Shown: piece by piece, positions 12,732 to 51,743 of the stretch
Layout: each line of letters opens with the position of its first letter
How positions within the stretch are numbered: the first letter of the stretch is position 1
NCBI GenBank assembly: GCA_963810095.1
Contig: CAWEMM010000006.1
Location: 832,001 to 896,000, forward strand
DNA length: 64,000 nucleotides
Source: an uncultured Chloroflexia bacterium
GTDB lineage: Bacteria > Chloroflexota > Anaerolineae > CG2-30-64-16
Reading direction: 5' to 3'
Made by a program: the position numbers and the translations under genes
The notes under the pieces: generated by a model
What the model was told of the DNA's origin: nothing
Databases searched by the model: none
What the model saw: only the letters and a program-made list of their open reading frames with translations

Positions 12732-15700
12732 TTAAGGCGCGCCCGGGAACAAGGGTGAAGTCGAATTCCGCCTCCTCCCGCGAGTCGAGCGAGCGTCCGC
12801 CTGCGCCGTTGACCGCTACCACCTTGTAGAAATGGTTCACTGCCGGGTCGCCCACCACGCCCTTGTCGATGTACACACTGCGATCCCCGCCGAAGTCGGA
12901 CGGGTGGACCTCGGACACGAGCGTCATGCTCGCGCCCGCACCCGTCGTGCCGTACGGCGTCTCGCTGCGCCACAATTCGTACCGGTTCGGAAACTCGTAG
13001 CCGTCGGACACGTCACGGATGATCGCCGCCCAATTCACGTTCAGATCGACCGTGTTGGTGATGACGGAGAAGGGCAGCGGCACCTCCGGCTGGTCGGCTT
13101 TGCTGGGCGCCACCAGGACGAGACCCGACTGGGGCGGTACGTCAGCGGTAATCTGGCACACGACGAACGTGTCCGGGTTGCATTGGGTCGTGAACGTGTT
13201 GCCGGTCACGACGTCCATCCACACTTCGTCCTGGAATGAGAGGTAAGGCGCCTTCTCCAGGTTTTGGAACACGATCGTGTGCGTCACCGCATCGCGATTC
13301 AGCGCGATCAGCTGCGGACTTCTGCTCGGCCTCCAGCGTTCGCGCGTAGGCATAGAGCTTGTCGGCGTCCGAGATGACGAGGCCGTGCTGCACGTCGCCA
13401 TACTGCAGCGCCGGGTAACCCTGCCGGGCACTGGTGAGGCTGCGCAGGAAGGGCAACGTGCCGGTGTAGGGCGTGTACGAGCCGGGGGTGTCGTCCCAGG
13501 GGAACGGCGTCCGGTTGTAAGGATCGTCCTGCCACGTCGCGTTGGTGCTGTCCCAGACGCCATCCGCCTGCACCTGCATCTCGTCCCCGTAATAGAGCGT
13601 CGGTGCGCCGGCGTAGGTCAGGTTGAAGAGCCAGTACTCCTTCATGCGCTGCAGCGCCGCCGCATCGTCGTCATTGTTGATCTTCTTCAGGAGGAAACGC
13701 AGGCGGTTTGTGTCGTGCGAGTCGCCCATATTCATCATGGCCTTGAACGCTGCCGGCGGGTAGTCCTCCTGGATCGAGCGCAGGCGGGCGTTGAGCTGGG
13801 AAGGCGTCAACGCGCTGATGGGGCCCGACGCGCTGTTCGCGTTGTCGTCGTTATCCTGGAAACTGGTGCCGCCCGTGCAGCCATCACCCGAGCATCCCGT
13901 GAAGAGCCAGCCGAGCGCGGCCGAGCGCAGGCGGTAGTTCATCGCACTGTCCCACTCGTTGCCAAGCAGCCAGGGCGACGCGTCGCCCCACTCCTCGCCC
14001 AGAACGAGGGGCACCGTGCGAGTCTGCACGCTCGTATCCTTGACCGCAGCACGGAAGCCTTCCCAGTAGGTATTTGGCTGCGCCGGGTCCTCCTGCGTCA
14101 GTCCTGGATCGATGTCGCCGGCCACGTCGAGCCGCCACCCGGAGGCACCTTGCTGCACCCAGTAAGGTCCGATGGATGGCTGCACACCCGTGCCACCGAT
14201 TCCCTTCGCGTACACGAGGTCACGCACGCCCTGGTTCGCGGAATCCAGCTTAGGCAGCGAGCCATAACCGTACCAGGCCGTGTACGTCTGCGTCCATGCC
14301 CCGCCGCGGTCGTCCGTGTCCGTGGGGTCGCAGCGGTCGTCGGCCCCCGAAGCGGGAGAGCCGCCATCCGGGATGAAGAACCACGCCCGGCGCGGCGAGT
14401 TCGGGCTCTCGCAGGCCTGAATGTTGTCGTCCAGGCCGGGACCGGTATTGCTGACCAGTTGGTCCTTGAAGTTGTACCGGCTGTAGCGATCGAAGTACGC
14501 GCTGTCCGACGACGTGTGGTTGAACACGCCATCGAGGATGATGCTGATGCCCTTGGCCGCCGCCGCGGCCTTGAGGTTTTGCCAGGCGGTCGAACCGCCA
14601 AATTCTTGGTCGATGCTGCGGTAGTTCGCCGTGTCGTACTTGTGATTCGACGGCGACGAAAAGATCGGGTTGATGTAGATGGCGCTCACCCCGAGGTTGT
14701 TGAAATAACCGTCGTTGATCTTCTGTGCGATGCCGGCCAGGTCGCCGCCGTAGAGGTTCTCGCCGAACTTGTTCTGACAAGGCCCCGTGCTGCGGGGGTC
14801 GCACAGGGTCGTGTTCCAGGTCATCGTGAACGAACGATAGATGGTGCCGCCGGGCTGATTATAGTAGAAGCGCGACTTGACCGCGTTGTTCACCGATTGG
14901 CCGTCGCGGAACCGGTCGGGGAAGATTTGGTAAACAATGCCCTTCTGCATCCAGTCGGGCGTGGTGAAGTTCTGGTCATAAACCGTGAGTTGATAAGAGT
15001 TGGCCTCGGCGTTGGCCTGGTTATCGTCAGGGGTGCCGTAGCCTCCGCCGTAGAACTTCGGGTCATCGTCCCGATAGAAGACCGTCTTCGTGCCGTCGAT
15101 CAGGCGGAAGGTGTAGTACAGAATCGTGGGGTCGGCCGGCACGGGCAGGTCGTAGGTCCAGAAAGTTACTTCGCCGTGCACCGGGTCGACCAGCTCGGGG
15201 CCGGCAACCATATCGTAGAGCAACTCGGTGTTCGTGCGATCGTCCCAGACCCGCAGCTTGGCGGCGGTAAGGTCGCCCCGGCAGGCGCGTACCCGCAAGG
15301 ACAGCGTCCCCGGCGCATTGCTCACGGCTCCAAGCGGACTGCGGTAGTCGGTGCTGAACGAGTCATGGAGCAGGGCCGACCAGAAGATGTTGTTGTCGGG
15401 CTTGGCGCCCAGGCAGTCGCCCGAGGTCGGTTGGTTGACGGTCAGCTTGATGTTGCCGCTGGACATCGTCGCCCAGTATTTCACGGGCGGCGATTCAGTG
15501 ACGTCAGTGCAGTAGGCCGTGAACTCGTACAGGCCCGAGAGCGGGGAGACCGTGGCGGTGAAACGGTCGCTGTTGCCAACGTCCTCTGACCACGTCATGG
15601 GCGTGTCGAAGGGGGTGGGCTGCCAGGCGCCGCCAAAGCTCGCAACCTTCGACCAGTACAGGTGGCATTCGATCTCATAGCTGTCGCCTGGGATCACATC

Positions 15701-15946
15701 GGTGGTGCCGGCCTTGTAGGCGTCGACCGTCACGGTGAAGGACTGGCCCGAGTTAATGGCGTTGCTCGATCCGCTGGCCGGAATCAGGTTGCCGACCGTG
15801 TTGATGGTTTGCGGGCTGGTAGGTGCCGTTGGGGCCGCGGCGAGTGCTGCGGGCACACAGACCACCGCGGCAACTAGCAGCGATGCCAAAATCGCGTGGC
15901 GGGCGCGACGGAACGCGCTGCGCGGGGTTCGTCGTTGGGTCATCAT
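12732..15946 (-). CDS. Secreted GH13 alpha-amylase/amylopullulanase-like enzyme with C-terminal AEFDF domain (frameshift near 13320, probably another near 12745)
   Basis: YQIFPDRF, YGGDLAGI, HKYDT, LDGVFNH, GWRLDVA, LGEEW, DSHD conserved regions; the C-terminal part lies in ORF 12652..13563; removing one G gives the end LVPGAP* at 12732. Confidence 0.88.
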
Positions 15947-15969
15947 AGCGCACCTCGATGGGGAATCAG

Positions 15970-15983
15970 GTAAAGCGCTTAAA
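15970..15983. promoter_or_regulatory. Possible LacI-family operator upstream of the amylase
   Basis: GTAAAGCGCTTAAA with palindromic AAGCGCTT core, about 25 bp before the start codon. Confidence 0.45.
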
Positions 15984-16240
15984 ACAATCAGGCCGACACG
16001 CCGCAGATGTGCCGGCCTAGCGATGCGGGGACATGGTTGCGCAAGGTCGCGACAGACCGTTCGCGCACGCGGATGCCTTCACCGCGAAGGCCCCGCACTC
16101 GGTCAACAAGCTGCGACGGGGACTGGCAACGCAGCATGCCTCAGTCGGGGTCGAGCCGCCTTGGTCCATCCGGGCTGTCCGCCCCACCTGCAACAGCGGC
16201 GGTCGCATACGCGCCCGCCGGCCGCAGATGGCTGGAACTG

Positions 16241-16369
16241 CTACTTGTTCGTGCCGGCCGGATCAAGCGGATCAGGAATGCTCAACGGTGAACCGGCGCG
16301 TACCTCCAATGCCGACTCGTAGACCACTGCCGGCTCCTCGTATGGCTTGCGTTCCTGCTTCTGCTCCAT
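16241..16369 (-). CDS. 42-aa RiPP-like precursor peptide (absent from the ORF track)
   Basis: MEQKQERKPYEEPAVVYESALEVRAGSPLSIPDPLDPAGTNK*; AGGAGG RBS 5 nt upstream; KPYxxP leader motif; directly downstream of a PqqD gene. Confidence 0.8.
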   Translation of the reverse strand: MEQKQERKPYEEPAVVYESALEVRAGSPLSIPDPLDPAGTNK

Positions 16370-16471
16370 GATATCCTCCTAAAGATGTACCGCTACACAA
16401 CTACTGCGGAACTAGAGCGGCGCTGCGGCGATGTGGCATGGGATGGCAAGGGCATCACCGTGCGCCATGCG

Positions 16472-16744
16472 TCAAGAGTCAAAGGTCAGCAAACCCCGCC
16501 CGACCAGGTCTCGGCAGAAAGCCAGGGTGTCTGATTCGGCCTTGACCGAGCTGACCTCGTACTCTGCGGCGATCACGCGGGTTATATCGCCGATAGTGTG
16601 TTGTCCGTCGGCAAGCTCCCAGATGCGGGCGCCCACCCCGTTCAACACAGTCACCTTCTTCTGCTCCGCGTGAACCAGGACAGCCTCGCCGTCGAGCGTT
16701 CGACTCGCGACTCCCGACATGCGGCGTGGAACAACGTCTAGCAC
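16472..16744 (-). CDS. PqqD-family protein / RiPP recognition element (RRE)
   Basis: DGEAVLV..LNGVGARIWELADG..I..EYEV..D..F..L..GLL pattern; overlaps the stop of the kinase-like gene. Confidence 0.9.
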   Translation of the reverse strand: MLDVVPRRMSGVASRTLDGEAVLVHAEQKKVTVLNGVGARIWELADGQHTIGDITRVIAAEYEVSSVKAESDTLAFCRDLVGRGLLTFDS

Positions 16745-17611
16745 GGCGCCTCTTGAGCAATGACGTCCCAGAAGGCGTCATCCTTCCGAAAGTGCAGCCG
16801 CCGCACGCCGACTGCGCCGGCAATGTCGCGGCAGCGCTCCATCAGGACCGGCAGCAGATCCGGGTGGTCGTTCACCACCGGCGCGTTCGCGAGCAACTCG
16901 GCCGCGCCGGCTAGGCCCGGCATCGGCTCGAGAAATACCTCCCGATCCTGGATCAGTTTGTAAATCCCGGTGACCAAGCCGCTCTCGGCCTCACCTTCGC
17001 GGTCCATGGTGTCAAAATTCCAGAAGGGTGTGCCGTAGGCGCACCAACCGCGTGCGCTGCGGCGCAATAGGATCAGGTCATCACCGAGAGCCACAGCTCG
17101 CTTTGCGGCCTGCGAGAGTGCCACAACAGTCGACTTACCGCTCCCGCTTTGGCCCACGAATAGGGCAACCCGTCGCCGCGTCATCCCTGGTGCAGGTTGG
17201 GTCAGTGCCGGTCGCACTCTCGCGCATGAGCGCCGCACAGTGAAGCAATAATCCATCGCGCCGCAGAGCAAAGAGGGCCAACGCGATGCGCAGAAAGTAC
17301 TCTGCTTCCCGCGCGGGCTCGGCTGAGCGCATGCGCAACTCAGCCCGCCCCCGCAGTGCGTCAATCATACCATAGAACGTGGTGCCGTCAAGTAGGTAGT
17401 CTTCCCCCTTCTTTGTCAAAGACGCGTGCAAGATACTCTCGGACGTGCCCGGGGCGTTCGCCTCGGGCGCCTCGCCGTGTACGACGACGACAAAGTCGGT
17501 CGTCGCGGCGCGGGCACACGCAAAGCGGGCAAGACGCGGTGCGAGGCGGTCGACCAGCGCGGCCGGGCTTAGCTCCAGCTCGACACGCCAACGTGCCAAT
17601 TCTAAGAGCAT
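16738..17611 (-). CDS. HPr-kinase-related P-loop protein (ScmC/HprK-rel-like; frameshift near 17168)
   Basis: LLHCAAL, GQSGSGKST Walker A, LGDD, YGTPFW, LHFRKDDAFW motifs across ORFs 17135..17638 and 16738..17364. Confidence 0.8.
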
Positions 17612-17644
17612 GATAGCATGCCCCGGGGTCTGCCGCAACCGTAC

Positions 17645-18076
17645 TTAACCGCTATCACCGCGCGCCTTTTGCAGGAGCCGGCCGCCTCGCAGCCAGATCA
17701 GCAGGACCAGCACGGCCAGGCCGCCCAGCAGCACCGCATGCTGCCACTGCAAGCCGCCCGCGCGCACGCTGATCGGGCCGAAGCGGTTGACGAGCCCGTT
17801 TCGCTCCACTTCCTGCAACTCGTAGTAATAAGTCACGCCGCCCTGCGCCGTCTTGTCCAGGAAAGTGTATTCCTTCCCGGTCAACGGATCGGCGGATGGG
17901 GGTATCAACTCGTCGTTGACCTTGGTCTCGAACGGCCCATCAGGCGAGGTGCCGCGGTACAGGTTGAAGCCAGCCGTGTTCATCTCGGTTTCGGTCTTCC
18001 ACGTCACGCGCACCGGCGCGCCGCATCCGGCCAGCAAAAAGGTAAGCAGTGTCAGCAGAAACAGACAATTCCGCAT
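17645..18076 (-). CDS. Small lipoprotein with Fn3-like 'W.T.TE...GFNLYR' domain and C-terminal TM
   Basis: LLAGC lipobox; VTWKTETEMNTAGFNLYRG..YTFLD..YYYELQEV; hydrophobic tail followed by R/K. Confidence 0.75.
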   Translation of the reverse strand: MRNCLFLLTLLTFLLAGCGAPVRVTWKTETEMNTAGFNLYRGTSPDGPFETKVNDELIPPSADPLTGKEYTFLDKTAQGGVTYYYELQEVERNGLVNRFGPISVRAGGLQWQHAVLLGGLAVLVLLIWLRGGRLLQKARGDSG

Positions 18077-18198
18077 GGCGCCTCGAAAGACGGATAATGA
18101 CGCGGCCGGCAAAGCGCTCCGGTAGGCGCTCGCCTGATCCCGCGGAACAATGACAAGCGGCGGCCTGGCCGGCGCGATACGCGTGGCAGCCCTGCCCC

Positions 18199-20052
18199 TC
18201 ATGGACACGCAATCCGTGCGTCTGCGCCGAGTGTCACCTGCGTACGGCACTCCCGGAAGCTGAACGTGAGGGGCCAGCCCGCAGTGCCCGCCTGCTTGCG
18301 CACATACAGCTTGTACGGCTCGGCCGGAACTCCGGCCGGCAGCCGGTAGCGGAGCGTAACCGTGTGCGCGGCGCCCGGCGCCAGGACAAAGTCGCCGCTG
18401 AATACTGTGGCGCCGCCCTCGCCCGGCTCTGTGGAGGGCGAGTTCAGCCCTTCGGCCGCCAACAACTCACTCCCCGCGGGTGCGAAAACGCGCACGTAGT
18501 CCCAGTAACAGCGGGCCGCGAGTTCCGCATAGTTGGGGCCATAGTCGAGGCTTCGTTCACATTTGGAGTCGGCCTTGGCGGGGGCGGTGTGCGTGTAAGT
18601 GATGGTGAGGGTCGCCTCCAGCCCGCCTGACAGCTCCTGCACCCGGTAGTCGAGCGCCTGCTGGACGAACATGTTGGCCTTGTCAAAGCCCACGTTGCTG
18701 TCGACGACGGACAGGAAGTCGCTGGCGGCAGGCACGCGCACGGCGCCGTCCCAGCCTTGACGGGCAAGCAGCGCGGCCAGCGTGGGATCGTCGACGGCCG
18801 CCTGGATGTGGCGGCCGTCGAGCGCGGCGTAAAGCGTGCGCGCCAGCCCGACCGTGTCGAGGTCGCCGCCGGCCTGGACTTTAGCCAGGGCGGCTTTGAC
18901 AAGCTCGCCCATGAAGTCCTTGCGCTTGGTCCACCAATCGCCGGCCGCGCCGGTCTCCAGGGCCGCACCGCCGGCAGGACTTTCCCAGGCGGCCTTCATC
19001 CAGCCCAGCGCGTTCTCGCCCGTCACGGGCTCGGCGATGCCCGGCACCTGCAGGGGGCCGACCGCGCCGACCAGTTGGCGCACGGCTTCGAGATCGAGCG
19101 CGATGGCGCCGTCCGTCTCGATGCCCCGATCTTGCGCGTAGAGGGCGCGTGCGACGTCGGCCGAGCTTGGGAAATCAGGAGACCAGTTCGAGTCGCGCAG
19201 TACCCACAGGTCTGCCGCCATGTACTTGCGCAGCGCAGCCGGGGGCTCGGGGTGCGGCTGTTCCCAGTTATCCACCGCGTAGCTGTCGGTGAGCACCAGG
19301 TCCGTGAGCTTGCCCCGGTCGAGGGTCACATGACCCGCACCGCTGATGAAGCCGCCGGTCGCCCGCAGCTCGTCGCTGTTCTGCGCCAGCAGCAGATAGG
19401 TGCGCGGCCCGCCTGCGCCCAGCAGCTCGGGCGCGGCCTCGACCAGCGCCAGGCCGTCCTGGGCGAGCGGGAGCAGCTTGTCCAGCTTCTCTACCTGGCT
19501 GATAAGCCGCGGCTCGGCAAGGGGCGGCAGCTCGGCCCGGAGTTCCGCCGCGTTCGCCAGCCGCGCCCGGGCCTCGGCTACTGCGGGCTGCGCGGCCTCC
19601 AGCGCCTCGACGGCCTTCGGCAGGGTGTCCAGCCCCCCACCGTCTGCGACCAGTTGGCCGACGGGCGCGAGGGCATCGGAGGCGAGCCGGGCGGCCGCGG
19701 CAAACTCGACCGCCAGCTCGACCAGCTTGGGTGCTGCCACCAGGTCGGGCCCGAAACGGGGGGCCCAGCCGAGCGCGGGCGCGATGCGCAGGAATGGCCG
19801 GCCCGCCGCTTGGGCTTCGACGAGATGCGTCTGCAAGCTGGCCAGGTCAGCCTGCGCCTGGGGTAGGGCCGCCGCGGAGGGGTCGGCAAGAAGGCCCTGC
19901 AGACGATCGAGATCGTCCAGCGCGGCCCGGGCATAGAGCGCCGTGCGTGCGGCGCGCCAACCCAGCCATGCCAGGAGAGCAATGGCCGAGATGATCAGCG
20001 CAAGCGCCAGCCAGCGATTCAAGCGGCTTGGTCGGGAAGCAGTTTCGGGCAT
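18199..20052 (-). CDS. DUF4012-domain membrane-anchored protein
   Basis: RTYLLLAQNSDELRATGGFI, RDSNWSPDFP, DSNVGFDK, DYVRVFAP, KQAG motifs; N-terminal TM; the ORF-track extension to 20715 is a frameshift artefact. Confidence 0.85.
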   Translation of the reverse strand: MPETASRPSRLNRWLALALIISAIALLAWLGWRAARTALYARAALDDLDRLQGLLADPSAAALPQAQADLASLQTHLVEAQAAGRPFLRIAPALGWAPRFGPDLVAAPKLVELAVEFAAAARLASDALAPVGQLVADGGGLDTLPKAVEALEAAQPAVAEARARLANAAELRAELPPLAEPRLISQVEKLDKLLPLAQDGLALVEAAPELLGAGGPRTYLLLAQNSDELRATGGFISGAGHVTLDRGKLTDLVLTDSYAVDNWEQPHPEPPAALRKYMAADLWVLRDSNWSPDFPSSADVARALYAQDRGIETDGAIALDLEAVRQLVGAVGPLQVPGIAEPVTGENALGWMKAAWESPAGGAALETGAAGDWWTKRKDFMGELVKAALAKVQAGGDLDTVGLARTLYAALDGRHIQAAVDDPTLAALLARQGWDGAVRVPAASDFLSVVDSNVGFDKANMFVQQALDYRVQELSGGLEATLTITYTHTAPAKADSKCERSLDYGPNYAELAARCYWDYVRVFAPAGSELLAAEGLNSPSTEPGEGGATVFSGDFVLAPGAAHTVTLRYRLPAGVPAEPYKLYVRKQAGTAGWPLTFSFRECRTQVTLGADARIACP

Positions 20053-20057
20053 GCGTC

Positions 20058-21630
20058 CTATTGAGATGAGCCAAGTACGGGCGCCAGGACCCCGGACGGC
20101 GGAACCTTCGCGCCGAGCCGTAGGGGCAGGCCTACGTCCGCGGTAGCGTAGACCGGGCGCCGGGCAAGCCAGCCTGGAATCAGCTCTTCGAGGCCGGTGA
20201 CGTCGTCTCCCGATGGTAACAGATCGGGGTGCCTCTCGGCAAGCGAACGCCGGTACCAATCGAAACCGAAGAGACTGACGTTGACTACAGCCACATCGGG
20301 CCGCGCGTTCAGCCCGTACACTCCGTACCACAATGCAAAGGTCTCGCGGTCGGCGGCGGTGAGGACGACAGCGTTCGGCGCGGCGTCTTGGGCGCTGTTC
20401 GCCGTGGCCCGGGCCGCCAGGTCGTCCGCGGGGCTGTGCTGCTGCCACCGCCCCGCGATGGGGCCAACCACCAGCGCGGCGGCTGCGACGACGTGCGAGA
20501 GCGGCTGCCGGGCGGGGCTTGAGCGCTGCCAGGAGGCCGTCGAGTCCGGCGGCCAGCCACAGCGCCATAACGGCGAAGGCGGGAATCAGGTAAACGTCCG
20601 AGTCGGTCGAGTTGTACCCGATCGCGTAGATCGCGAACGCGGCCCAGATCAGCAGCGTGGTCAGCCACCACTGGGGCAGCCGCCGCTCGAGCCGCCACAG
20701 CCCGCCCAGCGCCACGACCAGGCCCCAGGGGAGGAATTGGCCCGCGGTTGTGGAGACCCAGCCGGCCAGCCGCGGGCAGCTCGGCCAGCGGCAGGCCGAA
20801 GACCAGCGGCGCGTAGAGCCTGCCGGTGACGACCCAGAGGAATCGATCCGGGGTCACCGGGTCGCCCCAGTTGATCGGCGGACGGCCCGACGCGGCGAGG
20901 GGCAGGTAGGCGTAGACCAGCAGCCCGGCCAACACCGCGAGCCCCGCCGCGCCCAGGTCGCGGGCCAGTCGCTTCCGCCCGCGGCCTTTCAGCCAGATCC
21001 ACGCGGCGAGCCCGGGCACCACGAGAGCGATCGTGATGTGGTTGCCAAGTCCAAGGCCGAGCGTTAGGCCGGCCAGCGCAAGCCAGTGCGCGGCCGGGCG
21101 GCCGGCGTCGACCGCTTCTCCCCACCGCCATGCCAACCACAACAGACAGACGCAGAGCAGCGCGTTGAGTGCATACACCTCGACGATGGTGGCCTGCCCC
21201 CAGACGAGGGGCGAGGCGGCCCACGCGAGCCCGCCGAGCAGCGCAGCAGCAGCCGCCGCGCCCGGTCGCGACCCTCCGGTCCGCCAGGGTCCGCCGGGCC
21301 AGGTCGACGAGCAGGGCCGACCGCCAGCGCCGCGCAGAGCGCGGACAACCAGGCCCCGGCCCGGGCGGGTTCGCCGCCGGCGAGCGCGACGAATGCTCGC
21401 AGAAGCAGCTCGTAGGTGGGGTAGCCGGTGGGATGCGGGACGCCGCCGGTCAACGCAGCTGCGAGCAGGTCACCGCCGTCGGCCCCGTTGTGCGCCCACG
21501 TCAAGCCGGGCGGCAACGTCGCGGCATACAGCGCGAGCGCAGGGCACCGCCCAGCATCGGAGCGAGGATTGCGGCGGTCCGCGGGCGGGTCACGCGCGGA
21601 CCGCGCCGGGTCGACCAGGGTTGGCTGCAC
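20058..21630 (-). CDS. DUF2723 / TMEM260-like GT-C glycosyltransferase (several frameshifts)
   Basis: YAATLPPGLTW..DGGDL..GVPHPTGYPTY, EVYALN, GLGNH, YAYLPL..PPINWGDP, DSDVYLIP, FALWY..RPDV motifs over successive frames. Confidence 0.82.
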
Positions 21631-21686
21631 GAACTGGCTACCTTATGGGAGGGATGCGCAGCCGCAACCGCTGCAACTGGCCACGC

Positions 21687-22374
21687 TTACCGCAGGCTCC
21701 CTCCAGTGGCAGGCAGCTGCGCCGGGGGCAGCCCAAGCGTAAGCGAGGCCGTCCGGGGCGGGCAGCCCGCCGCCGCTGCGCTCGCGCGGGCGCTGATGGC
21801 CTTCTCCGGACCCGTCGCCACAACGCGTGCGGAGTAGACCGCCTGCAGCCGGGCGCCTGGGTCGAGCGTGGGCGCGGACACGCGCAGAGTCCGGTCCTGC
21901 CACGTGCCGTTGCCGCTCAGGACGGCCACGGGCTCGAGGCCCGAGGCAAGCACATCTTCGAGCACGACGTCCCTGAACTGCTGCCGCGTCGTATTGGTCG
22001 AGCGTCGCGGTGAAGACGACGGTCGCGCCCGGCCACACGGCCTCACGGTCGGCGACCAGCTTCAGCGCCGATGCGGGCGGGCAGGCGGCGGACGTGGGCG
22101 CGGGCGCGGCGGGCGCAGGCGTGCTGCCGGGCACCGCAGGAACCTGGGTCGCCTGCGGACCTGAGGTGGGCGGCGCACCCGTGGGCGGCACGGCCGTATT
22201 GGCCGGCGGCTCGGTAGGCGAAATGGGCAGCGGTGTTGGCGTGCGGGTCGGAATCGTCTGCAACCATTCAGACTGACCGGGCGTCGCCCAGGCGGCCGGT
22301 GCCGCAAGCGCCGCGAGCAGTAGCACCGCACCTATGGCTCCATAGGCGAGAAAGCGCCATGTTCGTTTCATCAT
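21687..22374 (-). CDS. Secreted PT-rich, DUF11-like protein ending in LPATG (frameshift near 22000)
   Basis: Signal peptide (AWA), Pro/Thr linker, ADREAVWPGATVVFT..TN..DVVLEDVL, C-terminus LPPAQLPATGGSLR*. Confidence 0.75.
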
Positions 22375-22414
22375 GCCAACCTCCTGCCGGAACGCCGTGC
22401 ACGGCGCCCGGCCC

Positions 22415-23340
22415 TTACTTCTCCGGACGGGCAATCACCACCAGCCGGTGAGTGTTATTGGTCGGCGGCCAACAGGTAATGAGCGTGACCCGTTCGTCGC
22501 CCGTCGGCTGGATGTATTGCGCGTTGATTTCCCGCTGCTGCTGCGAGATGCCGGTGTCCTTCAGACGATAGAAATCGGTGATAACGTACTTATACTGCGT
22601 CCCCGAAGCGTCGATAGAGGAAGACTTCACGGCCGTCCAATGCGTCCGACTTGTCGGTGTAGTTGTCGACCTTCACCCGGCCATCGTTCTTCCAGGCCTG
22701 GCTGATCGGCATGAACACCTTCCCGTAGATGTTGTTGTGGCCCGAGATCACCAGGTTGCTCGCCTTGACCGATGCCCGCGCTGTTGAGGTGGTGGCCGGC
22801 GACGTTCTTGGGAATCACCCATTGCGAGACCGGCCCCGAGTTCGTCTGGACCACCTCCCAACCCATCTCCACCACGGGGGTGTCGATCTTCAGGTCGGGA
22901 ATGCTCAGCCGGACAGGAAGCACGGGCGCCGGCGCCGCCGTCGGCGAGGCCGTGGCCGTCGCCGGGACAGACGTCGGTGTCCGAAGTGGAGCAGCCGTCG
23001 TTGCGCGGCGAGTTGCGGGCGCGGCCGGCGAGGGCGCGGGGCTTGCAGGCAAGGTCGCGCTCCGGGTCGAGGTTGGAGCCGGTTTGGCCGAGGCCAACTC
23101 CGCGGCCGGAGTGCCCGCCATGGGGGCGCCCCCTGCCACCCTAGTGCTTGCGGGAGCAGCCAGTTCCAGCGCCATGCGCGTCGCCCGCGCCGACGCGGCC
23201 GCCGAGCCTTGCTCCAATTCAGACCGCACCTGCGCGGCCTGCACCTCAGTCCAGGCGAAATACCCCGCCACGATCAGTATCAACAGCAGGCCGATCCCCA
23301 TCAGGACCGTGCCGACGTTCCGAGTGCCATTCCGTCCCAT
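22415..23340 (-). CDS. Sortase (class D/F-like) with PT-rich linker (frameshifts near 22755 and 22630)
   Basis: N-terminal TM, PVRLSIPDLKID, VISGHNN (His), VTLITCWP (TLxTC), HRLVVIA (Arg). Confidence 0.9.
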
Positions 23341-23500
23341 TAGCAGCCTCAACCCGGCGACCTCGCGGCCCGCCGGCAAGTCAAATACGCGAGAGCATTA
23401 TAGCTTAACGCCCGGGTGTTCCACAACGATACGCGCCCGTGGCGGCGCGGGGCAGTCGAACATTTGACGATAACCCGGGGATATTTGGGGATACGTTCTA

Positions 23501-46425: not shown

Positions 46426-48742
46426 ATGCCGCTATCTCCACAGCCCGGGCGTCTCCGCGTCTGGCCCGGCTTGATAAAGGCGTCTTGCATCGCATTCGCC
46501 TTGCTCCTGGTTTCGGTCGCCTACCTGCCACCCGCGCATGCCGCACAGGAAGCGGCCTCGACCGCGGCGCGGGTGCGCATCGGCGTCGTCAAGGACGGGG
46601 TGACGGTCATTGCGCCTGGCGACCTGGCCGCTGCAGGCGTCGACCCAAACGGCGTCGATCCCCGCACGTTCGCGCTCAGCAGCCTCGGGCAGCCGGTTGC
46701 CGTCTACGTAACGGGCGAGAACGACGGACGTTTCGACGGGGCCGACCGGCTGTACTTCTTCGGCGAGAAGTTCCGCGGGCCCGAAATGGACCAGAAGTAC
46801 ACTGACGAGCGCGTCTATTGGCTCGACATGGGCGGCGCGGCCGGCCCGCGCATGACGACGGTGGACGCAAGTCCGCTGTTCGACCGCACGCCGCCGGCCG
46901 ACTTTGCGACCACCCTGCATGCCGAGGAGTCTACCGTCTGGTGGACCCTCTACTCGCTGTCGCTGGCGCAAGAGACACAGGACACGTGGTTCTGGAAGAA
47001 GCTTTCGTTGCTCTCCGGTTCGTCCATCACCGGGACCTTGCCCTATACCGTGCCCTACCCGGCGAATGCCAGCGCCACCTTGCGCCTCGAGGAAATCAGC
47101 AACGCCCACGTGTACGGAGTCGATCCCGACCATCGCACGAAGGCTGCGCTTAACGGCGTCCCGCTGATCGATACAACGTGGGACGGCTTACAAGTGCGGA
47201 AGGTATTCAGCGCGCCCGTCCCGGCCGGGGTTTTGACGCATGGGACGAACACCCTTGCCGTTGGCGCCTGGACGGTGCCGGGAACTTCTTCGGACCTGGT
47301 CTACGTCAACTATTGGGAACTGGATTATCGCCGGCTGTTTCGCGCCTACGAAGACCGGCTTGACTTCAGGGCCGAGACAACCGGAACGCAGGAGTACGAG
47401 GGCAAGGGTTTTTCGAGTGCTGACGTCTGGGCATGGGATGTGAGTGCGCCGGGCGCTCCCGTGCGCCTGCTCGCCCCGGCTGCGGCGGATCTTCGCTTTC
47501 GGGTGAACGCGACGGCGGGCAATCGCTATTGGCTCCAGGCCGCGGGTAGCTTCCAATCGCCCGCGTCCATCCGGCGACGCCTGCCGACCGGGTTGCGCGA
47601 TCCGCAAGGGGGCGCCGACTCCGTCATCGTGACCTCGACCGAGTTGCAGCCGCAGGCCGACCGCCTCGCCGAGTGGCACCGGGCGCACGGGCGCCGCGCG
47701 CTGGTCGTGAATATCCAGGATGCCTACGACGAGTTCAACGATGGCATTTATCATCCCAAGGCCGTGCAGGCGATGATGAAGTGGGCCAGCACACATTGGA
47801 CGAGCCCGGCGCCCCAGTACCTGACCCTTTTCGGCGATGGGCACTGGAACTTCAAAAACTACAACCCGGCCGAGTACCCGGGTGGGCCGAACCACATCCC
47901 GCCCTACCTCGCCTTTGAGGACATCTGGCAGGGCGAAGTCCCGGTCGATGCCCGCTTTGGCGACCTGAACGACGACAAGCTGCCAGACGATTGCGGTCGG
48001 CCGGATCGCCGTCGACACCGTCGCAGAGGCCGCGATCGTGGTCGACAAGATCCTCGCCTACGACGAAAACGCGCGCTTGGCTGGGTGGCAGCGCCGGGCC
48101 ATCTTCGTCTCGGACAACGCCGACCTCGACGGTGACTTCCCGACGGTTTCGGATGAAATGATCGCCAACTACACGCCGAAGGACCTGCAGGTCAGCCGGG
48201 TCTACCTGCCGCCCGCGGCGACGCCGGATCAGATTGCCGCGACTCGGAACGCATTGCGCAGCGCCTGGAACGACGGCGCCTTCATGGTGCAGTTCACCGG
48301 CCACGGTGCGCCCGAGCGGTGGACGCATGAGTTCATCCTGACCACCACGGACGTCCTCAACGGAACGTTCACGAACGGCTCCCGCCTGCCCATCGTCCTG
48401 ACCTTCAACTGCCTGGACGGCTACTTCGCGCACGCCCAGCCGGGTCGGATCAGTATCGCCGAAACGATGCAGCGAGCCCCCGGTGGCGGTTCGATCGCGG
48501 CCATCTCGCCGGCCGGCCTCGGCGCGACAGATGTGCAAGCGGCCTTCCGCCGCGTCCTGCTGACCGTCCTCTTCACTGACAACGTCCGTGAGATCGGCCG
48601 GGCACTCACGATCACCAAGCAGCGCTTCGCCGAGACCTACGGGGCGCACTACCTGACGCAGACCATGATGCTGTTCGGCGACCCGGCCATGCAGGTGCCG
48701 GCGGGAACGCCGAAGCAATATCTGCCCATTATCGTCCGCTAA
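46426..48742 (+). CDS. C25 family (gingipain/PorU-like) cysteine peptidase 1 (frameshift near 47985)
   Basis: YTDERVYWL, YDEFNDG, YLTLFGDG, VGRI, FTGHG (His), FNCLDGYF (Cys), LFGDPA; ends QYLPIIVR. Confidence 0.88.
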
Positions 48743-48798
48743 AGTTTGCAGGTGCGCGCCTCCTGACGCGCTCGCTGCCGTGGATTGAGAGACGCTCG

Positions 48799-49782
48799 AT
48801 GCATCGCAGACAATTGTTGGCCGCTGTCGGGTTGACAGCACTGTGCGCCGTCCTATTGCTCGGCCCGGCCCTGGCGTCGGTCGAGCTGGTGTCCTTCGGG
48901 GCCGAGCCGACGACCAATAACACGATCATGGTGACCTGGGAAACCGCAACCGAGCGGGACATGATCGGTTTCAAGCTGTACCGGTCTCTGACCGGTTCGG
49001 GCGCTGATTGGGTCGACTTGATCCCCGAGGGCGTCCCCGCAGACGGCACGGCGCAGGGCGGCGCCCGATACGGCTTTGAGGACAAAACGGACATTGCCCT
49101 GAACACGAGGTACTACTACCAGCTGAAGGAAATCTCGAACACAGGCGACGTCGTGGAGATTGCCCGGGCATCGACCGGGATCGGCCTTCCTGCCGACACC
49201 GCAACCTCCACCGGCACTCCGACCGCCAGCCCCACCTGGACCAGGGTGGCCGGCTCGGTCGGCGGTGCAGCGACCGCGACGCCGCCCCGTCCGACGGCAA
49301 CGCCGCGTTACACCCTCGCGCCGCCGACCGCGGCGCCGGGCACCCCCGCCCCGCGAGCCGGGACCACGGCAACGGTCCAGGCGGCCGTCAGCACGCGCAC
49401 GCCGCTCGTCGGTGCGCAGGTTGCCACGCCGACGGGCGCCGCGCCGAGGGTCACCCTGCCCGCTCCCGCGAGCCCGGCGGTCCAGCAACCCGTCGACACG
49501 CCCGCGCCCCTTGCCCCCGAAACACCCACCCCCGACCTCGTCGCGATGGCCGAGGGCCCAGGGGCCGAATCGCCAACCCCTGTTCCAACAAAGGACGCCA
49601 CGCCGGTGATCTTCTCTTCGGCAGAGGAAGGCACAGCCTCGCCCACGCCCGCCGGCGCCGAACAGACATCCGGCGAGGGTGCAGAGAGCAGCACACGAGC
49701 CCTCGTGATCGGGGGCGGCGCGCTCGGCATCGGGGCCCTGCTCGCCGCGCTCTACCTGTTCCTGCGATCACGGCGCGGCTAA
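48799..49782 (+). CDS. Surface protein: signal, Fn3-like 'VELVSF..WETATE..GFKLYRS' domain, PT-rich stalk, C-terminal TM + RSRRG
   Basis: Direct reading of the translation. Confidence 0.8.
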   Translation: MHRRQLLAAVGLTALCAVLLLGPALASVELVSFGAEPTTNNTIMVTWETATERDMIGFKLYRSLTGSGADWVDLIPEGVPADGTAQGGARYGFEDKTDIALNTRYYYQLKEISNTGDVVEIARASTGIGLPADTATSTGTPTASPTWTRVAGSVGGAATATPPRPTATPRYTLAPPTAAPGTPAPRAGTTATVQAAVSTRTPLVGAQVATPTGAAPRVTLPAPASPAVQQPVDTPAPLAPETPTPDLVAMAEGPGAESPTPVPTKDATPVIFSSAEEGTASPTPAGAEQTSGEGAESSTRALVIGGGALGIGALLAALYLFLRSRRG

Positions 49783-49786
49783 GCCC

Positions 49787-51743
49787 ATGGTCCAGCGATT
49801 CCGGCGTCCGTTCGCGTGTGTGCTTCTGCTGTGCCTCGTCGTGCTTGCGGTCTCCGCCTGCACCGGCGCAAAAACCCTGCCCCCCGCCAGCAGCAGTGCC
49901 GTCAAGATCGGGGTGGACGAGGACGGCGTGTACCAGGTGACGGCAAGAGACCTCCTGAACGCCGGTTTTGACCTCGCCGCCGCGGAAAGCGAGGGGGTCA
50001 GCCTGTCGGTCGGCGGCGCCCCAGTCCCGTACGAATGGGTAGGTCGCGGGGGCGACCTGGCGATCCGGTTCGAAGGTATGCGTCTCGGCCCTGACAGCTA
50101 CACCCCTCGCAATATCTACTGGCTGACACGCGGAGCGCCAAGCACGGAGGGACCGGCCGCTGCCGAGGCACGACCCTCGCCAACCGCCACGCCCGCGGCC
50201 GGTGTCATCACTGCCACGGTGCGGCTCGAGCAGGATCTCCAATACGACCCGCAGGCCGTCCGCCCTGACCAGCGCTGGTACTGGCAGACGATCTTCGCAC
50301 CCGCCAAGGTTGAAGTCGGGTTCGATGCACCGGGAGTGAAGGACGCGCCCGCCGAGTTGCGAGTCGACGTAATCTCAAAGTCATCGGCCAACGTCGATCC
50401 GGATCACCGCCTGCTCGTTTTCGTCAACGATGCGTTTGTCTCTGACGCCGCCTGGGATGGCGCGGTCCCCCACTTACTCACTGCCGCCGTTCCTGCCGGC
50501 GTGTTGAAGGAGAAGGACAACCGTATCAGGATCGAAGCACCGGGCGACACCGGCGCTCCTGCCGATGCGGTTCAGCTGCACCGCATCGAAATCGCTTACC
50601 GCGGGACCCCGAACGCAGACGGGGCTGCGCCGCGCTCGCCGGCCTCGGTCGAAGTCCCCGCACTCAGCAGCCTGCCGGACTTGCCAGCCGGCGCCGACCT
50701 TGTGATCGTGACCGCACCTCAGTTCCACGACGCGCTCGGCGCCCCTTGTCGAAGCCCGGACGAAGCAAGGACTGCGGGTCGCCGTGCTGGATGTGGGGCA
50801 GGTCTACGACGCGTTCAGCTACGGGCGCCGCGATCCGCAGGCCATTCAAGCCCTGATGCGCTACGCCCGGCAGCACTGGCAGGCGCCCGCTCCGCGCTAC
50901 CTGCTCCTGGCGGGCGACGCGAGCTATGACCCGCTCGGCCGTACGCAGGGAACCGAGGTTGACCTCGTCCCCACCTACGACGTCTATACCACCTTCTCGG
51001 GGTGGACCGGGTCCGACGTGTGGTATGCGCTGCCCGACGATGCCGAGAACGCGATGCCGGCTTTTGCCGTGGGCCGCTTCCCCGCCCAGACGCCCGAGCA
51101 GATGGCGGCGATGGTGCAGAAGACGTTGAGCTATGAGGCGCAGACAGGCGACCTGGGGTGGCGCTCCGCCGCGCTGCTGGTGGCCGACAACGACGAGCCG
51201 GGCTTCGCGGAAGAAACGCAGAGCTTCGCCTCACAACTCAAGGGTTACCAATCCGGGCAACTCACGATCGACGGGGACGGAGCGAACGCAAAGAACGCGC
51301 TGCTCGGCGCGTTCTCGAAGGGTGCCGGGCTGATCGGCTACTTTGGCCACGGCAGCGTCACCCTGTGGGCCAAGGAGAAAGTCCTGGAGGTGGCAGAGGC
51401 GGCCAAGCTGAGCAACAAGGACCGCCTGCCCATCGTCTTCACCGTGACGTGCCTGAGCGGATTCTTCGAGCACCCGTCCACCGTCTCGCTGGGAGAGGCG
51501 CTGGTGCGCAATCCAAACGGGGGGGCTGTCGCAGCACTTGTGCCGAGCAGCGCGGCGGTGCTGACCGACCAGCGACTGCTGGCCCAGGGGCTGGCGGCAG
51601 CGCTTGCCCAGCCGGCGCCGCGCGCCCTTGGAGACACCATCCACGACGCGCAGCTCAGCCTCCCACGCGAGACTGGCGGCGTGCGCGAAATCCTGTTGAC
51701 CTTCAACCTGCTCGGCGATCCGTCGCTCACCGTCAAACGCTGA
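49787..51743 (+). CDS. C25 family cysteine peptidase 2, lipoprotein (frameshift near 50745)
   Basis: AVSAC lipobox, YTPRNIYWL, YDAFSYG, YLLLAGDASYDP, VGRFP, YFGHG (His), VTCLSGFF (Cys), LLGDPS. Confidence 0.88.

Follow-up and report, generated by a model that had tools for sequence, protein, structure and literature searches.

A three-gene cassette of a YxxP-leader peptide, a PqqD-type recognition element, and a ScmC-family kinase-like protein in a Chloroflexota genome, with a possible role in linear phosphopeptide formation

The window analyzed here is a 64,000-nucleotide stretch of DNA from an uncultured Chloroflexia bacterium of the phylum Chloroflexota (contig CAWEMM010000006.1 of assembly GCA_963810095.1, positions 832,001 to 896,000 of the forward strand). 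It carries three adjoining genes that encode a P-loop protein resembling HPr kinases, a stand-alone PqqD-type recognition element (RRE) for peptides that are synthesized ribosomally and modified post-translationally (RiPPs), and a short precursor peptide (Table 1). The GTG start of the PqqD gene overlaps the TAG stop of the P-loop gene upstream. The three genes form one unit, and their order (kinase-like, PqqD, peptide) was syntenic in 15 of the 19 non-self loci that were found with the peptide, with the trio loci spanning several genera. The original prediction, made from the letters of this DNA alone, had proposed a 42-residue open reading frame (ORF) preceded by an AGGAGG ribosome-binding site, a PqqD gene next to it, and the overlap of the latter with the kinase-like gene; each of these features was recovered, and the translation of the peptide was identical to the one given. 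Relatives, which the original prediction had named as the place to look for a conserved small ORF beside PqqD, do carry it: of 61 related genomes (own genome counted), 25 had a peptide match at E ≤ 1e-4, and the number rose to 41 at E ≤ 10.

The peptide gene was examined for selection using a gap-free block of 30 codons from 15 loci, which gave 105 pairs. The mean proportion of synonymous differences (pS) was 0.70, near saturation, the mean proportion of nonsynonymous differences (pN) was 0.155, and the median ratio of nonsynonymous to synonymous substitution rates (dN/dS) was 0.11 for the 62 unsaturated pairs. On the basis of this ratio, we conclude that the peptide gene is under purifying selection and is a real gene. 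An AGGAGG/GGAGG-like site precedes the start codon in most of the 21 homologue genes listed. Searches of larger protein collections yielded 65 clusters, all without a name, in a set of 5.8 billion proteins and, among 1.84 billion proteins of a second set, 489 representatives at E ≤ 0.001. A scan for promoters and terminators returned one promoter-like site within the kinase gene and no useful terminator. Contigs of the RNA run X14 that cover the peptide gene were only 88 to 95% alike and stem from relatives, and they provide no evidence of expression for the window locus.

The conservation of the peptide was then read from 82 distinct homologues. The YxxP motif proposed for the leader was found in all 82 sequences and the block EVRAG in 77. 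The residue that follows RAG is Ser (58 sequences) or Thr (23 sequences) in every homologue except one frame-broken copy, and this Ser/Thr27 is the last strongly conserved position of the peptide. Two Ser residues had been put forward as candidate sites of phosphorylation; Ser27 was upheld by this conservation, and Ser30 was not, since position 30 is not conserved and is occupied by Gly in most homologues. The C-terminal residue is Lys in 54 homologues and Ser in none, and Cys is absent from the Y-type peptide in 81. The first acidic residue lies 7 to 9 positions past Ser/Thr27 in 73 of the sequences, and in the remaining 9 it is found at a spacing of 2 to 6 or 10 to 11 or is missing; this spacing is more variable among distant relatives. 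Among the best 150 of the 489 representatives, YxxP was present in 145 and the block E-x-x-[AG]-[GQ] in 135, with Ser or Thr following the block in 132 of these 135. The block through AG[S/T]P is kept in the distant representatives and the tail is variable, and the core is conserved rather than hypervariable in close relatives. Arg24 is exchanged for Gln in genome G047 and for Ser in genome G013 and is also replaced in the W-type peptides (WxxP leader) described below; where it is replaced, the aliphatic residue at −3 and the small residue at −1 are kept. Two further proteins of ∼650 residues (P0289 and P0291) have the peptide motif at their end, and either a fusion to surface repeats or a run-through gene call is possible.

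The window PqqD protein scored 63 bits against PF05402 (cut-off 23.4) and 41.9 bits against NCBIfam ScmD (cut-off 100), and its match to lasso_PqqD_Bac was likewise below cut-off. The nearest solved relative in a profile search was TbiB1 (5v1u; E 2.6e-14, 56 bits), followed by LppB (9x8z_B; E 6.4e-11, 45 bits) and PbaB1 (9x90; E 9.2e-8, 35 bits), all of which were crystallized with leader peptides. Judged by these matches, the protein is a B1-type RRE.

The kinase-like gene is divided between two frames in this assembly, with its N-terminal part running from 17611 to ∼17213 and its C-terminal part, which contains GQSGSGKST, from ∼17163 to 16738; the orthologues in relatives are single ORFs of 271 to 294 residues. 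Of eight public runs, X1 and X3 alone covered position 17176; in the contigs of both, which share 99% identity with the window, one base is missing there. Removal of that base from the window sequence gives one frame of 290 codons with no stop. At least 10 frame changes in comparison to orthologues were detected across window positions 12742 to 23343 and 46459 to 51740, affecting an amylase gene near 13312, an O-mannosyltransferase-like gene (three changes), the gene for a DUF11 protein, the sortase gene (two changes), and both C25 peptidase genes. Because the X1 and X3 contigs are without the extra base and many other window genes are frame-changed, the break in the kinase-like gene is most likely an assembly error. 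The frame changes fit an indel-prone long-read assembly, and the gene calls of this genome (16 contigs, 88.5% complete by marker genes) will be fragmented.

The window copy of the kinase-like protein has a loop of ∼13 extra residues just ahead of the P-loop strand in comparison to its relatives, and the P-loop and the DD motif are invariant in the orthologue alignment (A4). The structural model of the orthologue from genome G007 (pLDDT 92.4, pTM 0.90) matched PEP carboxykinase (PEPCK) over 240 residues and both domains with a Z of 14.2, and residues 116 to 268 of this model matched HprK/P catalytic domains with Z values of 9.9 to 10.5; Foldseek was also run. At the sequence level, nothing was matched but ScmC, HprK-related kinase A, and HprK-related kinase B, and each of these matches fell far short of the cut-off, with 24 to 28 bits for three orthologues against the ScmC model (cut-off 125). 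The Pfam family PF27840, named ScmC in the Atlas, was precomputed on most of the 120 homologues listed, and the ScmC profile had no match at E ≤ 0.01 among PDB sequences. According to these comparisons, the protein is a member of the ScmC family with an HprK/P-fold C-terminal domain within a PEPCK-like whole. The original prediction of an HprK-like kinase gene was correct in its fold, with the correction that the gene is not a single ORF in this assembly, and the suggested likeness to ScmC/ScmD cassettes was borne out in that the best NCBIfam names of the kinase-like and PqqD proteins are ScmC and ScmD.

Table 1. Features of the cassette, of its surroundings in the window, and of related gene clusters. 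C9 and C10 are other contigs of the same genome; coordinates beginning with L refer to individual loci.
Feature	Location	Strand	Description
Precursor peptide gene	16241..16369	-	42 codons plus stop; YxxP leader, block LEVRAG-S27-P, short variable tail
Ribosome-binding site	16375..16380	-	AGGAGG, 5 nt ahead of the peptide ATG
Stand-alone PqqD-type RRE gene	16472..16744	-	90 aa, GTG start; Pfam PF05402, E 3.4e-17
ScmC-family P-loop protein gene	16738..17611	-	PEPCK/HprK fold, motifs GQSGSGKST and LGDD; two frames in this assembly, extra base at 17176
c2 small protein gene	17645..18250	-	Lipoprotein-like N-terminus and hydrophobic C-terminal stretch, read from sequence; directly upstream of the kinase-like gene
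C25 peptidase, c2-like protein, and C25 peptidase genes	46459..51740	+	Located by tblastn of G005 orthologues; one frame break per C25 gene
C9 gene run	C9:638012-647911 (L093:1012-10911)		Wzz/tyrosine-kinase-like gene, NTP_transf_5, SipW-like peptidase, ScmC paralogue (two frames), 1923-aa alpha-2-macroglobulin-like protein
SipW-like serine peptidase gene	C9:640802-641266		Sole genome match
NTP_transf_5 gene	C9:639717-640805		E 4e-29; sole occurrence in genome
C10 cluster	C10:104495-106275 (L094:1495-3275)		PqqD, radical SAM/SPASM (frame-broken near 3' end), 70-aa peptide
C10 radical SAM/SPASM gene	C10:104792-~106060
Cluster of G048			c2-ScmC-PqqD-rSAM-peptide-C25-peptidase-c2-C25 (rSAM, radical SAM)
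Cluster of G047			c2-ScmC-PqqD-...-peptide-C25-peptidase-c2
Cluster of G045			peptide-C25-peptidase-PqqD-c2-C25
Cluster of G349			NTP_transf_5-ScmC-PqqD-rSAM-C25-peptidase
Cluster of G112			rSAM-ScmC-PqqD-peptidase
Cluster of G015			peptidase-ScmC-PqqD-rSAM-W-type peptides

Leaders of the YxxP type and HPr kinase homologues are both found in lasso peptide clusters, and the genome was searched for the corresponding enzymes. In agreement with the original prediction, which had stated this for the window, the surroundings of the cassette showed no gene for a lasso cyclase, a B2 protease, or a radical SAM enzyme, and the sole candidates in the genome lie on other contigs. The B2 family (Transglut_core3, PF13471) had no match in this genome at its 88.5% completeness and none in any of the 25 genomes where the peptide was strongly matched; it was present in 5 of the 61 genomes (G011, G023, G025, G032, and G043), none of which has a strong peptide match. 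No lasso-type cyclase was found in this genome. The only good Asn_synthase match in the genome, a gene for a 448-residue protein on contig C8, was considered as a hidden cyclase and rejected, as it stands alone without RiPP neighbors and scored 325 bits for AsnB versus 86 bits for lasso cyclase (cut-off 525). Radical SAM genes were found beside the trio neither in the window nor in any of the 15 syntenic loci. Genome G011, from the same bacterial family, contains a B1-B2 pair followed by two lasso-type precursors (L083:9003-10160) on a contig that ends before any cyclase or kinase. The leader of these precursors, ERKPYAEPQLIEYGDLETLT, is clearly homologous to that of the window peptide. The G011 precursors retain Thr at −2 and a terminal Ser; in the window peptide, V-R-A-G precedes Ser27 and there is no Thr. 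The cassette does not appear to be a lasso pathway and, because the two leaders are homologous, looks derived from lasso systems of the same lineage.

A closer counterpart is offered by the Linear Polyphosphorylated Peptides (LPPs) of Bacillota, with the proteins LppA/K/B/S/N/D, which were published in May 2026 (Popov et al., Nat Commun 2026;17:6633; PMC13381572). According to that paper, LPP precursors share a conserved YxxPxVLxHQxIxFETxxS block and have variable C-termini, LppK adds one to four phosphates to core Ser3, and LppS, which possesses a S29/H68/D93 catalytic triad, cuts the leader only with LppB. The same source reports that LPP clusters are often located in capsule or polysaccharide loci, that Tyr versus Trp in the leader is a known discriminator between RREs, and that the family is restricted to Bacillota with its final product and role unknown.

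By analogy with the LPPs, we propose, at a probability of roughly 55%, that the trio makes a linear phosphopeptide of this kind, with the RRE holding the YxxP leader and the ScmC-family protein phosphorylating Ser/Thr27. The PqqD-type RRE would present the peptide to the kinase-like protein, and at least one phosphate would be placed on Ser27 at core position 2 or 3. The leader would then be cut beside V23-R24-A25-G26, probably by the C9-encoded SipW-like serine peptidase acting in trans, and the C9 NTP_transf_5 protein may put a sugar onto the phosphate. A sugar on the phosphate has reportedly been seen in pseudomycoidin. A gapless alignment starting from the Tyr would set V23, R24, and A25 on the LPP residues F-3, E-2, and T-1 and put Ser/Thr27 at core position 2; if the cut falls after R24, Ser/Thr27 would be at core position 3.

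The suggestion that maturation enzymes might be encoded elsewhere in the genome was followed up, and candidates were obtained from C9 (the SipW-like peptidase, NTP_transf_5, and a ScmC paralogue) and C10 (PqqD and radical SAM/SPASM). No PqqD or peptide gene is near the C9 run. The Ser, His, and Asp residues are invariant in the SipW-like family, an archaeal-type signal peptidase model was matched by three of four aligned members (one above cut-off), and the C9 copy itself had no NCBIfam match. Members of this peptidase family are located inside peptide/PqqD/ScmC clusters in G045, G047, G048, G015, G112, and G349. The 70-residue peptide of the C10 cluster has a GGAGG site; its leader is of the WxxP type (RKPWEEP), its core is rich in Gly, and its C-terminal residue is Cys. 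The counterpart of the C10 cluster in G015 is grouped with a C9-type ScmC and with a peptidase of the SipW-like family. As a separate observation, small Cys-rich ORFs with a K-x-Y-x-x-P leader lie beside distant ScmC/HprK-like genes in other Chloroflexota (L055, L058, L059, and L060); these are probably thioether-type precursors of SCM-like cassettes.

The genes that surround the cassette (sortase, DUF4012, O-mannosyltransferase-like, C25, and polysaccharide genes) suggest a connection with the cell envelope rather than an antibiotic. A same-strand run upstream of the cassette (17645 to 23343), conserved in the genus, encodes c2, a DUF4012 protein, an O-mannosyltransferase-like protein, a surface protein with DUF11, and a sortase. 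The c2 gene, whose product has no Pfam match, adjoins the kinase-like gene on the same strand, both in the window and at L027-L030 and L040, and relatives of c2 are found inside the clusters of G045, G047, G048, and G432; c2 appears to be linked to the cassette and recurs with it and with C25 peptidases. Genes for the latter (Peptidase_C25, E 1e-75 in orthologues) are at most ∼9 kb from the peptide gene in 8 of 20 fetched loci, are 30 kb away in the window, and lie within the clusters of G045, G047, G048, and G349. From this synteny elsewhere, the window C25 genes are possible partners in trans. An Arg-specific cut after R24 by a gingipain-like C25 peptidase was set aside because Arg24 is replaced in G047, G013, and the W-type peptides while the residues at −1 and −3 persist; the retained small −1 and aliphatic −3 residues would fit a cut of the signal-peptidase type.

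Several results weigh against an LPP-like linear phosphopeptide. In 23 of the 82 homologues, Thr occupies the site, whereas LppK left a S3T variant unphosphorylated (PMC13381572). The kinase-like protein bears only a weak relationship to an HprK-like kinase of the same class from a lasso cluster (hhalign probability 46%, 66 columns). ScmC-PqqD pairs elsewhere in the phylum adjoin radical SAM/SPASM enzymes, and ScmC may for this reason act in a manner other than Ser phosphorylation. Of 36 family members, 29 have the SipW-like peptidase, including some that are without the peptide, and the peptidase was not found in G001, G021, G027, and G033, all of which carry the peptide; a clean co-occurrence of peptidase and peptide at the genome level was not borne out. 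The trio in the window also departs from the LPP core set in having no peptidase, NTP-transferase, or exporter gene next to it. An MsbA-like or other ABC exporter was absent from the conserved neighbors, and no genome search was aimed at MsbA.

The radical SAM genes noted above could be taken to mean that the pathway is of the SCM type, in which the C10 radical SAM/SPASM enzyme would modify the peptide in trans and ScmC would be an ATP-dependent helper or scaffold. Such an enzyme is encoded after ScmC-PqqD in G349, G181, G343, G112, G048, and G015, the same genome holds a PqqD-radical SAM/SPASM-peptide cluster with the similar leader RKPWEEP, and the best NCBIfam names of both window proteins are those of this system. 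We nevertheless regard this explanation as unlikely, as a radical SAM gene is beside none of the 15 syntenic trio loci, 81 of the 82 Y-type homologues are without Cys, and the C10 enzyme has a PqqD and a W-type peptide of its own, with Tyr or Trp discriminating between RREs (PMC13381572).

A second alternative is an intracellular phospho-switch, with the peptide serving as a small HPr-like regulator that is phosphorylated and dephosphorylated and tunes envelope or polysaccharide genes. HprK/P is a bifunctional kinase/phosphorylase of the same fold, no exporter or protease adjoins the trio, the core is not hypervariable in close relatives, and envelope genes are neighbors, all of which would suit a switch. 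The leader and RRE architecture is, however, typical of RiPP processing, related clusters carry leader-peptidase candidates and C25 peptidases, and the tail varies in distant relatives, and we consider the switch quite improbable.

The acidic residue 7 to 9 positions past Ser/Thr27 in 73 of the 82 homologues and the homology of the leader to the true lasso precursors of G011 raise the question of a macrolactam formed independently of a cyclase, whereby ScmC would activate Asp33 as an acyl-phosphate and generate a lasso-like ring without an AsnB-type enzyme. This explanation is very improbable: the chemistry has no precedent, the acidic spacing differs in 9 of the 82 homologues and varies more in distant relatives, and we know of no lasso peptide with Thr at ring position 1. 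The published LPP analogue stays linear (PMC13381572). Lastly, a functionless remnant of a decaying lasso cluster that lost B2 and C would account for the frame-broken kinase-like gene of this assembly and the lasso-like leader but is already disfavored and scarcely credible given the peptide dN/dS of 0.11, the retention of the trio in 15 of 19 loci across genera, the hundreds of metagenomic relatives, and the absence of the frame break from the two independent contigs of X1 and X3.

If the linear phosphopeptide reading is correct, the LPP logic of a lasso-type leader, an RRE, an HprK-fold kinase, and no cyclase would point beyond Bacillota to an unrelated phylum, and the ScmC/ScmD pair would gain a candidate substrate, a candidate reaction, and a defined target residue. 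The ties to envelope genes and to peptidases of the SipW-like and C25 kinds would also narrow where the function of LPPs and phosphorylated lasso peptides may lie. An origin apart from the Bacillota LPPs is plausible, given that the leader shares homology with lasso precursors from the same bacterial family and that TbiB1 outscores LppB as a match to the RRE. A more far-reaching view, which we offer as quite speculative, is that ScmC-family proteins serve as the peptide kinases in a toolkit spanning Chloroflexota, one that was derived from lasso systems separately from the LPPs, and that the trimmed phosphopeptide is a primer or handle that receives sugar from NTP_transf_5 and is then processed or anchored at the surface by gingipain/PorU-like C25 peptidases and c2. 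A ribosomal peptide would in that case be built into the envelope or matrix.

Within the literature collection searched, no paper was found on the SynChlorMet cassette, on ScmC with radical SAM, or on HprK-related kinase, and nothing relevant on RRE/kinase or PqqD RiPPs in Chloroflexi. Both SynChlorMet (ScmC-ScmF; NCBIfam TIGR04248-04251) and the cassette pair a ScmC-family protein with a PqqD-family chaperone. The two radical SAM/SPASM enzymes of SynChlorMet (ScmE and ScmF) are not in the window, the scores are far under the equivalog cut-offs (24 to 28 versus 125 bits for three orthologues against ScmC and 41.9 versus 100 bits for the window PqqD against ScmD), and a precursor peptide is identified for the cassette described here.

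With lasso clusters of the paeninodin type, as presented in PMC8498205, the cassette shares a YxxP/WxxP leader, a B1-type RRE, and an HPr kinase homologue that in those clusters acts on the linear precursor, and an NTP-transferase occurs in some of those clusters. The window leader is, in addition, homologous to the lasso precursors of G011. The differences from the paeninodin-type clusters are that neither a B2 in the 25 carriers nor a cyclase in this genome was found, that the window peptide is without Thr at −2, and that the terminal Ser targeted by those kinases occurs in 0 of 82 homologues.

The closest comparison is with the LPPs. The cassette differs in its phylum (Chloroflexota rather than Bacillota) and in having three clustered genes, with the SipW-like peptidase and NTP_transf_5 on C9 and no MsbA-like exporter among the neighbors. 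Its kinase-like protein is of the ScmC family with an HprK fold. The site is Thr in 23 of the 82 homologues, the peptides of the window family are short (∼40 to 60 residues), C25 peptidases and c2 proteins recur with the cassette, and the RRE scores nearer to TbiB1 than to LppB. The two systems agree in combining a discrete RRE, an HprK-fold kinase-like protein, and a precursor with a YxxPxV leader, without a cyclase or B2, and in a conserved block whose last residue is a Ser two to three positions past the predicted cleavage site and which is followed by a variable tail. The wider gene set includes a SipW-like serine peptidase and an NTP-transferase in both cases, and the Ser, His, and Asp residues that are invariant in the Chloroflexota peptidase family match the LppS triad. 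Like the LPPs, the cassette is found in polysaccharide and envelope loci and shares its genome with a second system that has a W-type leader.

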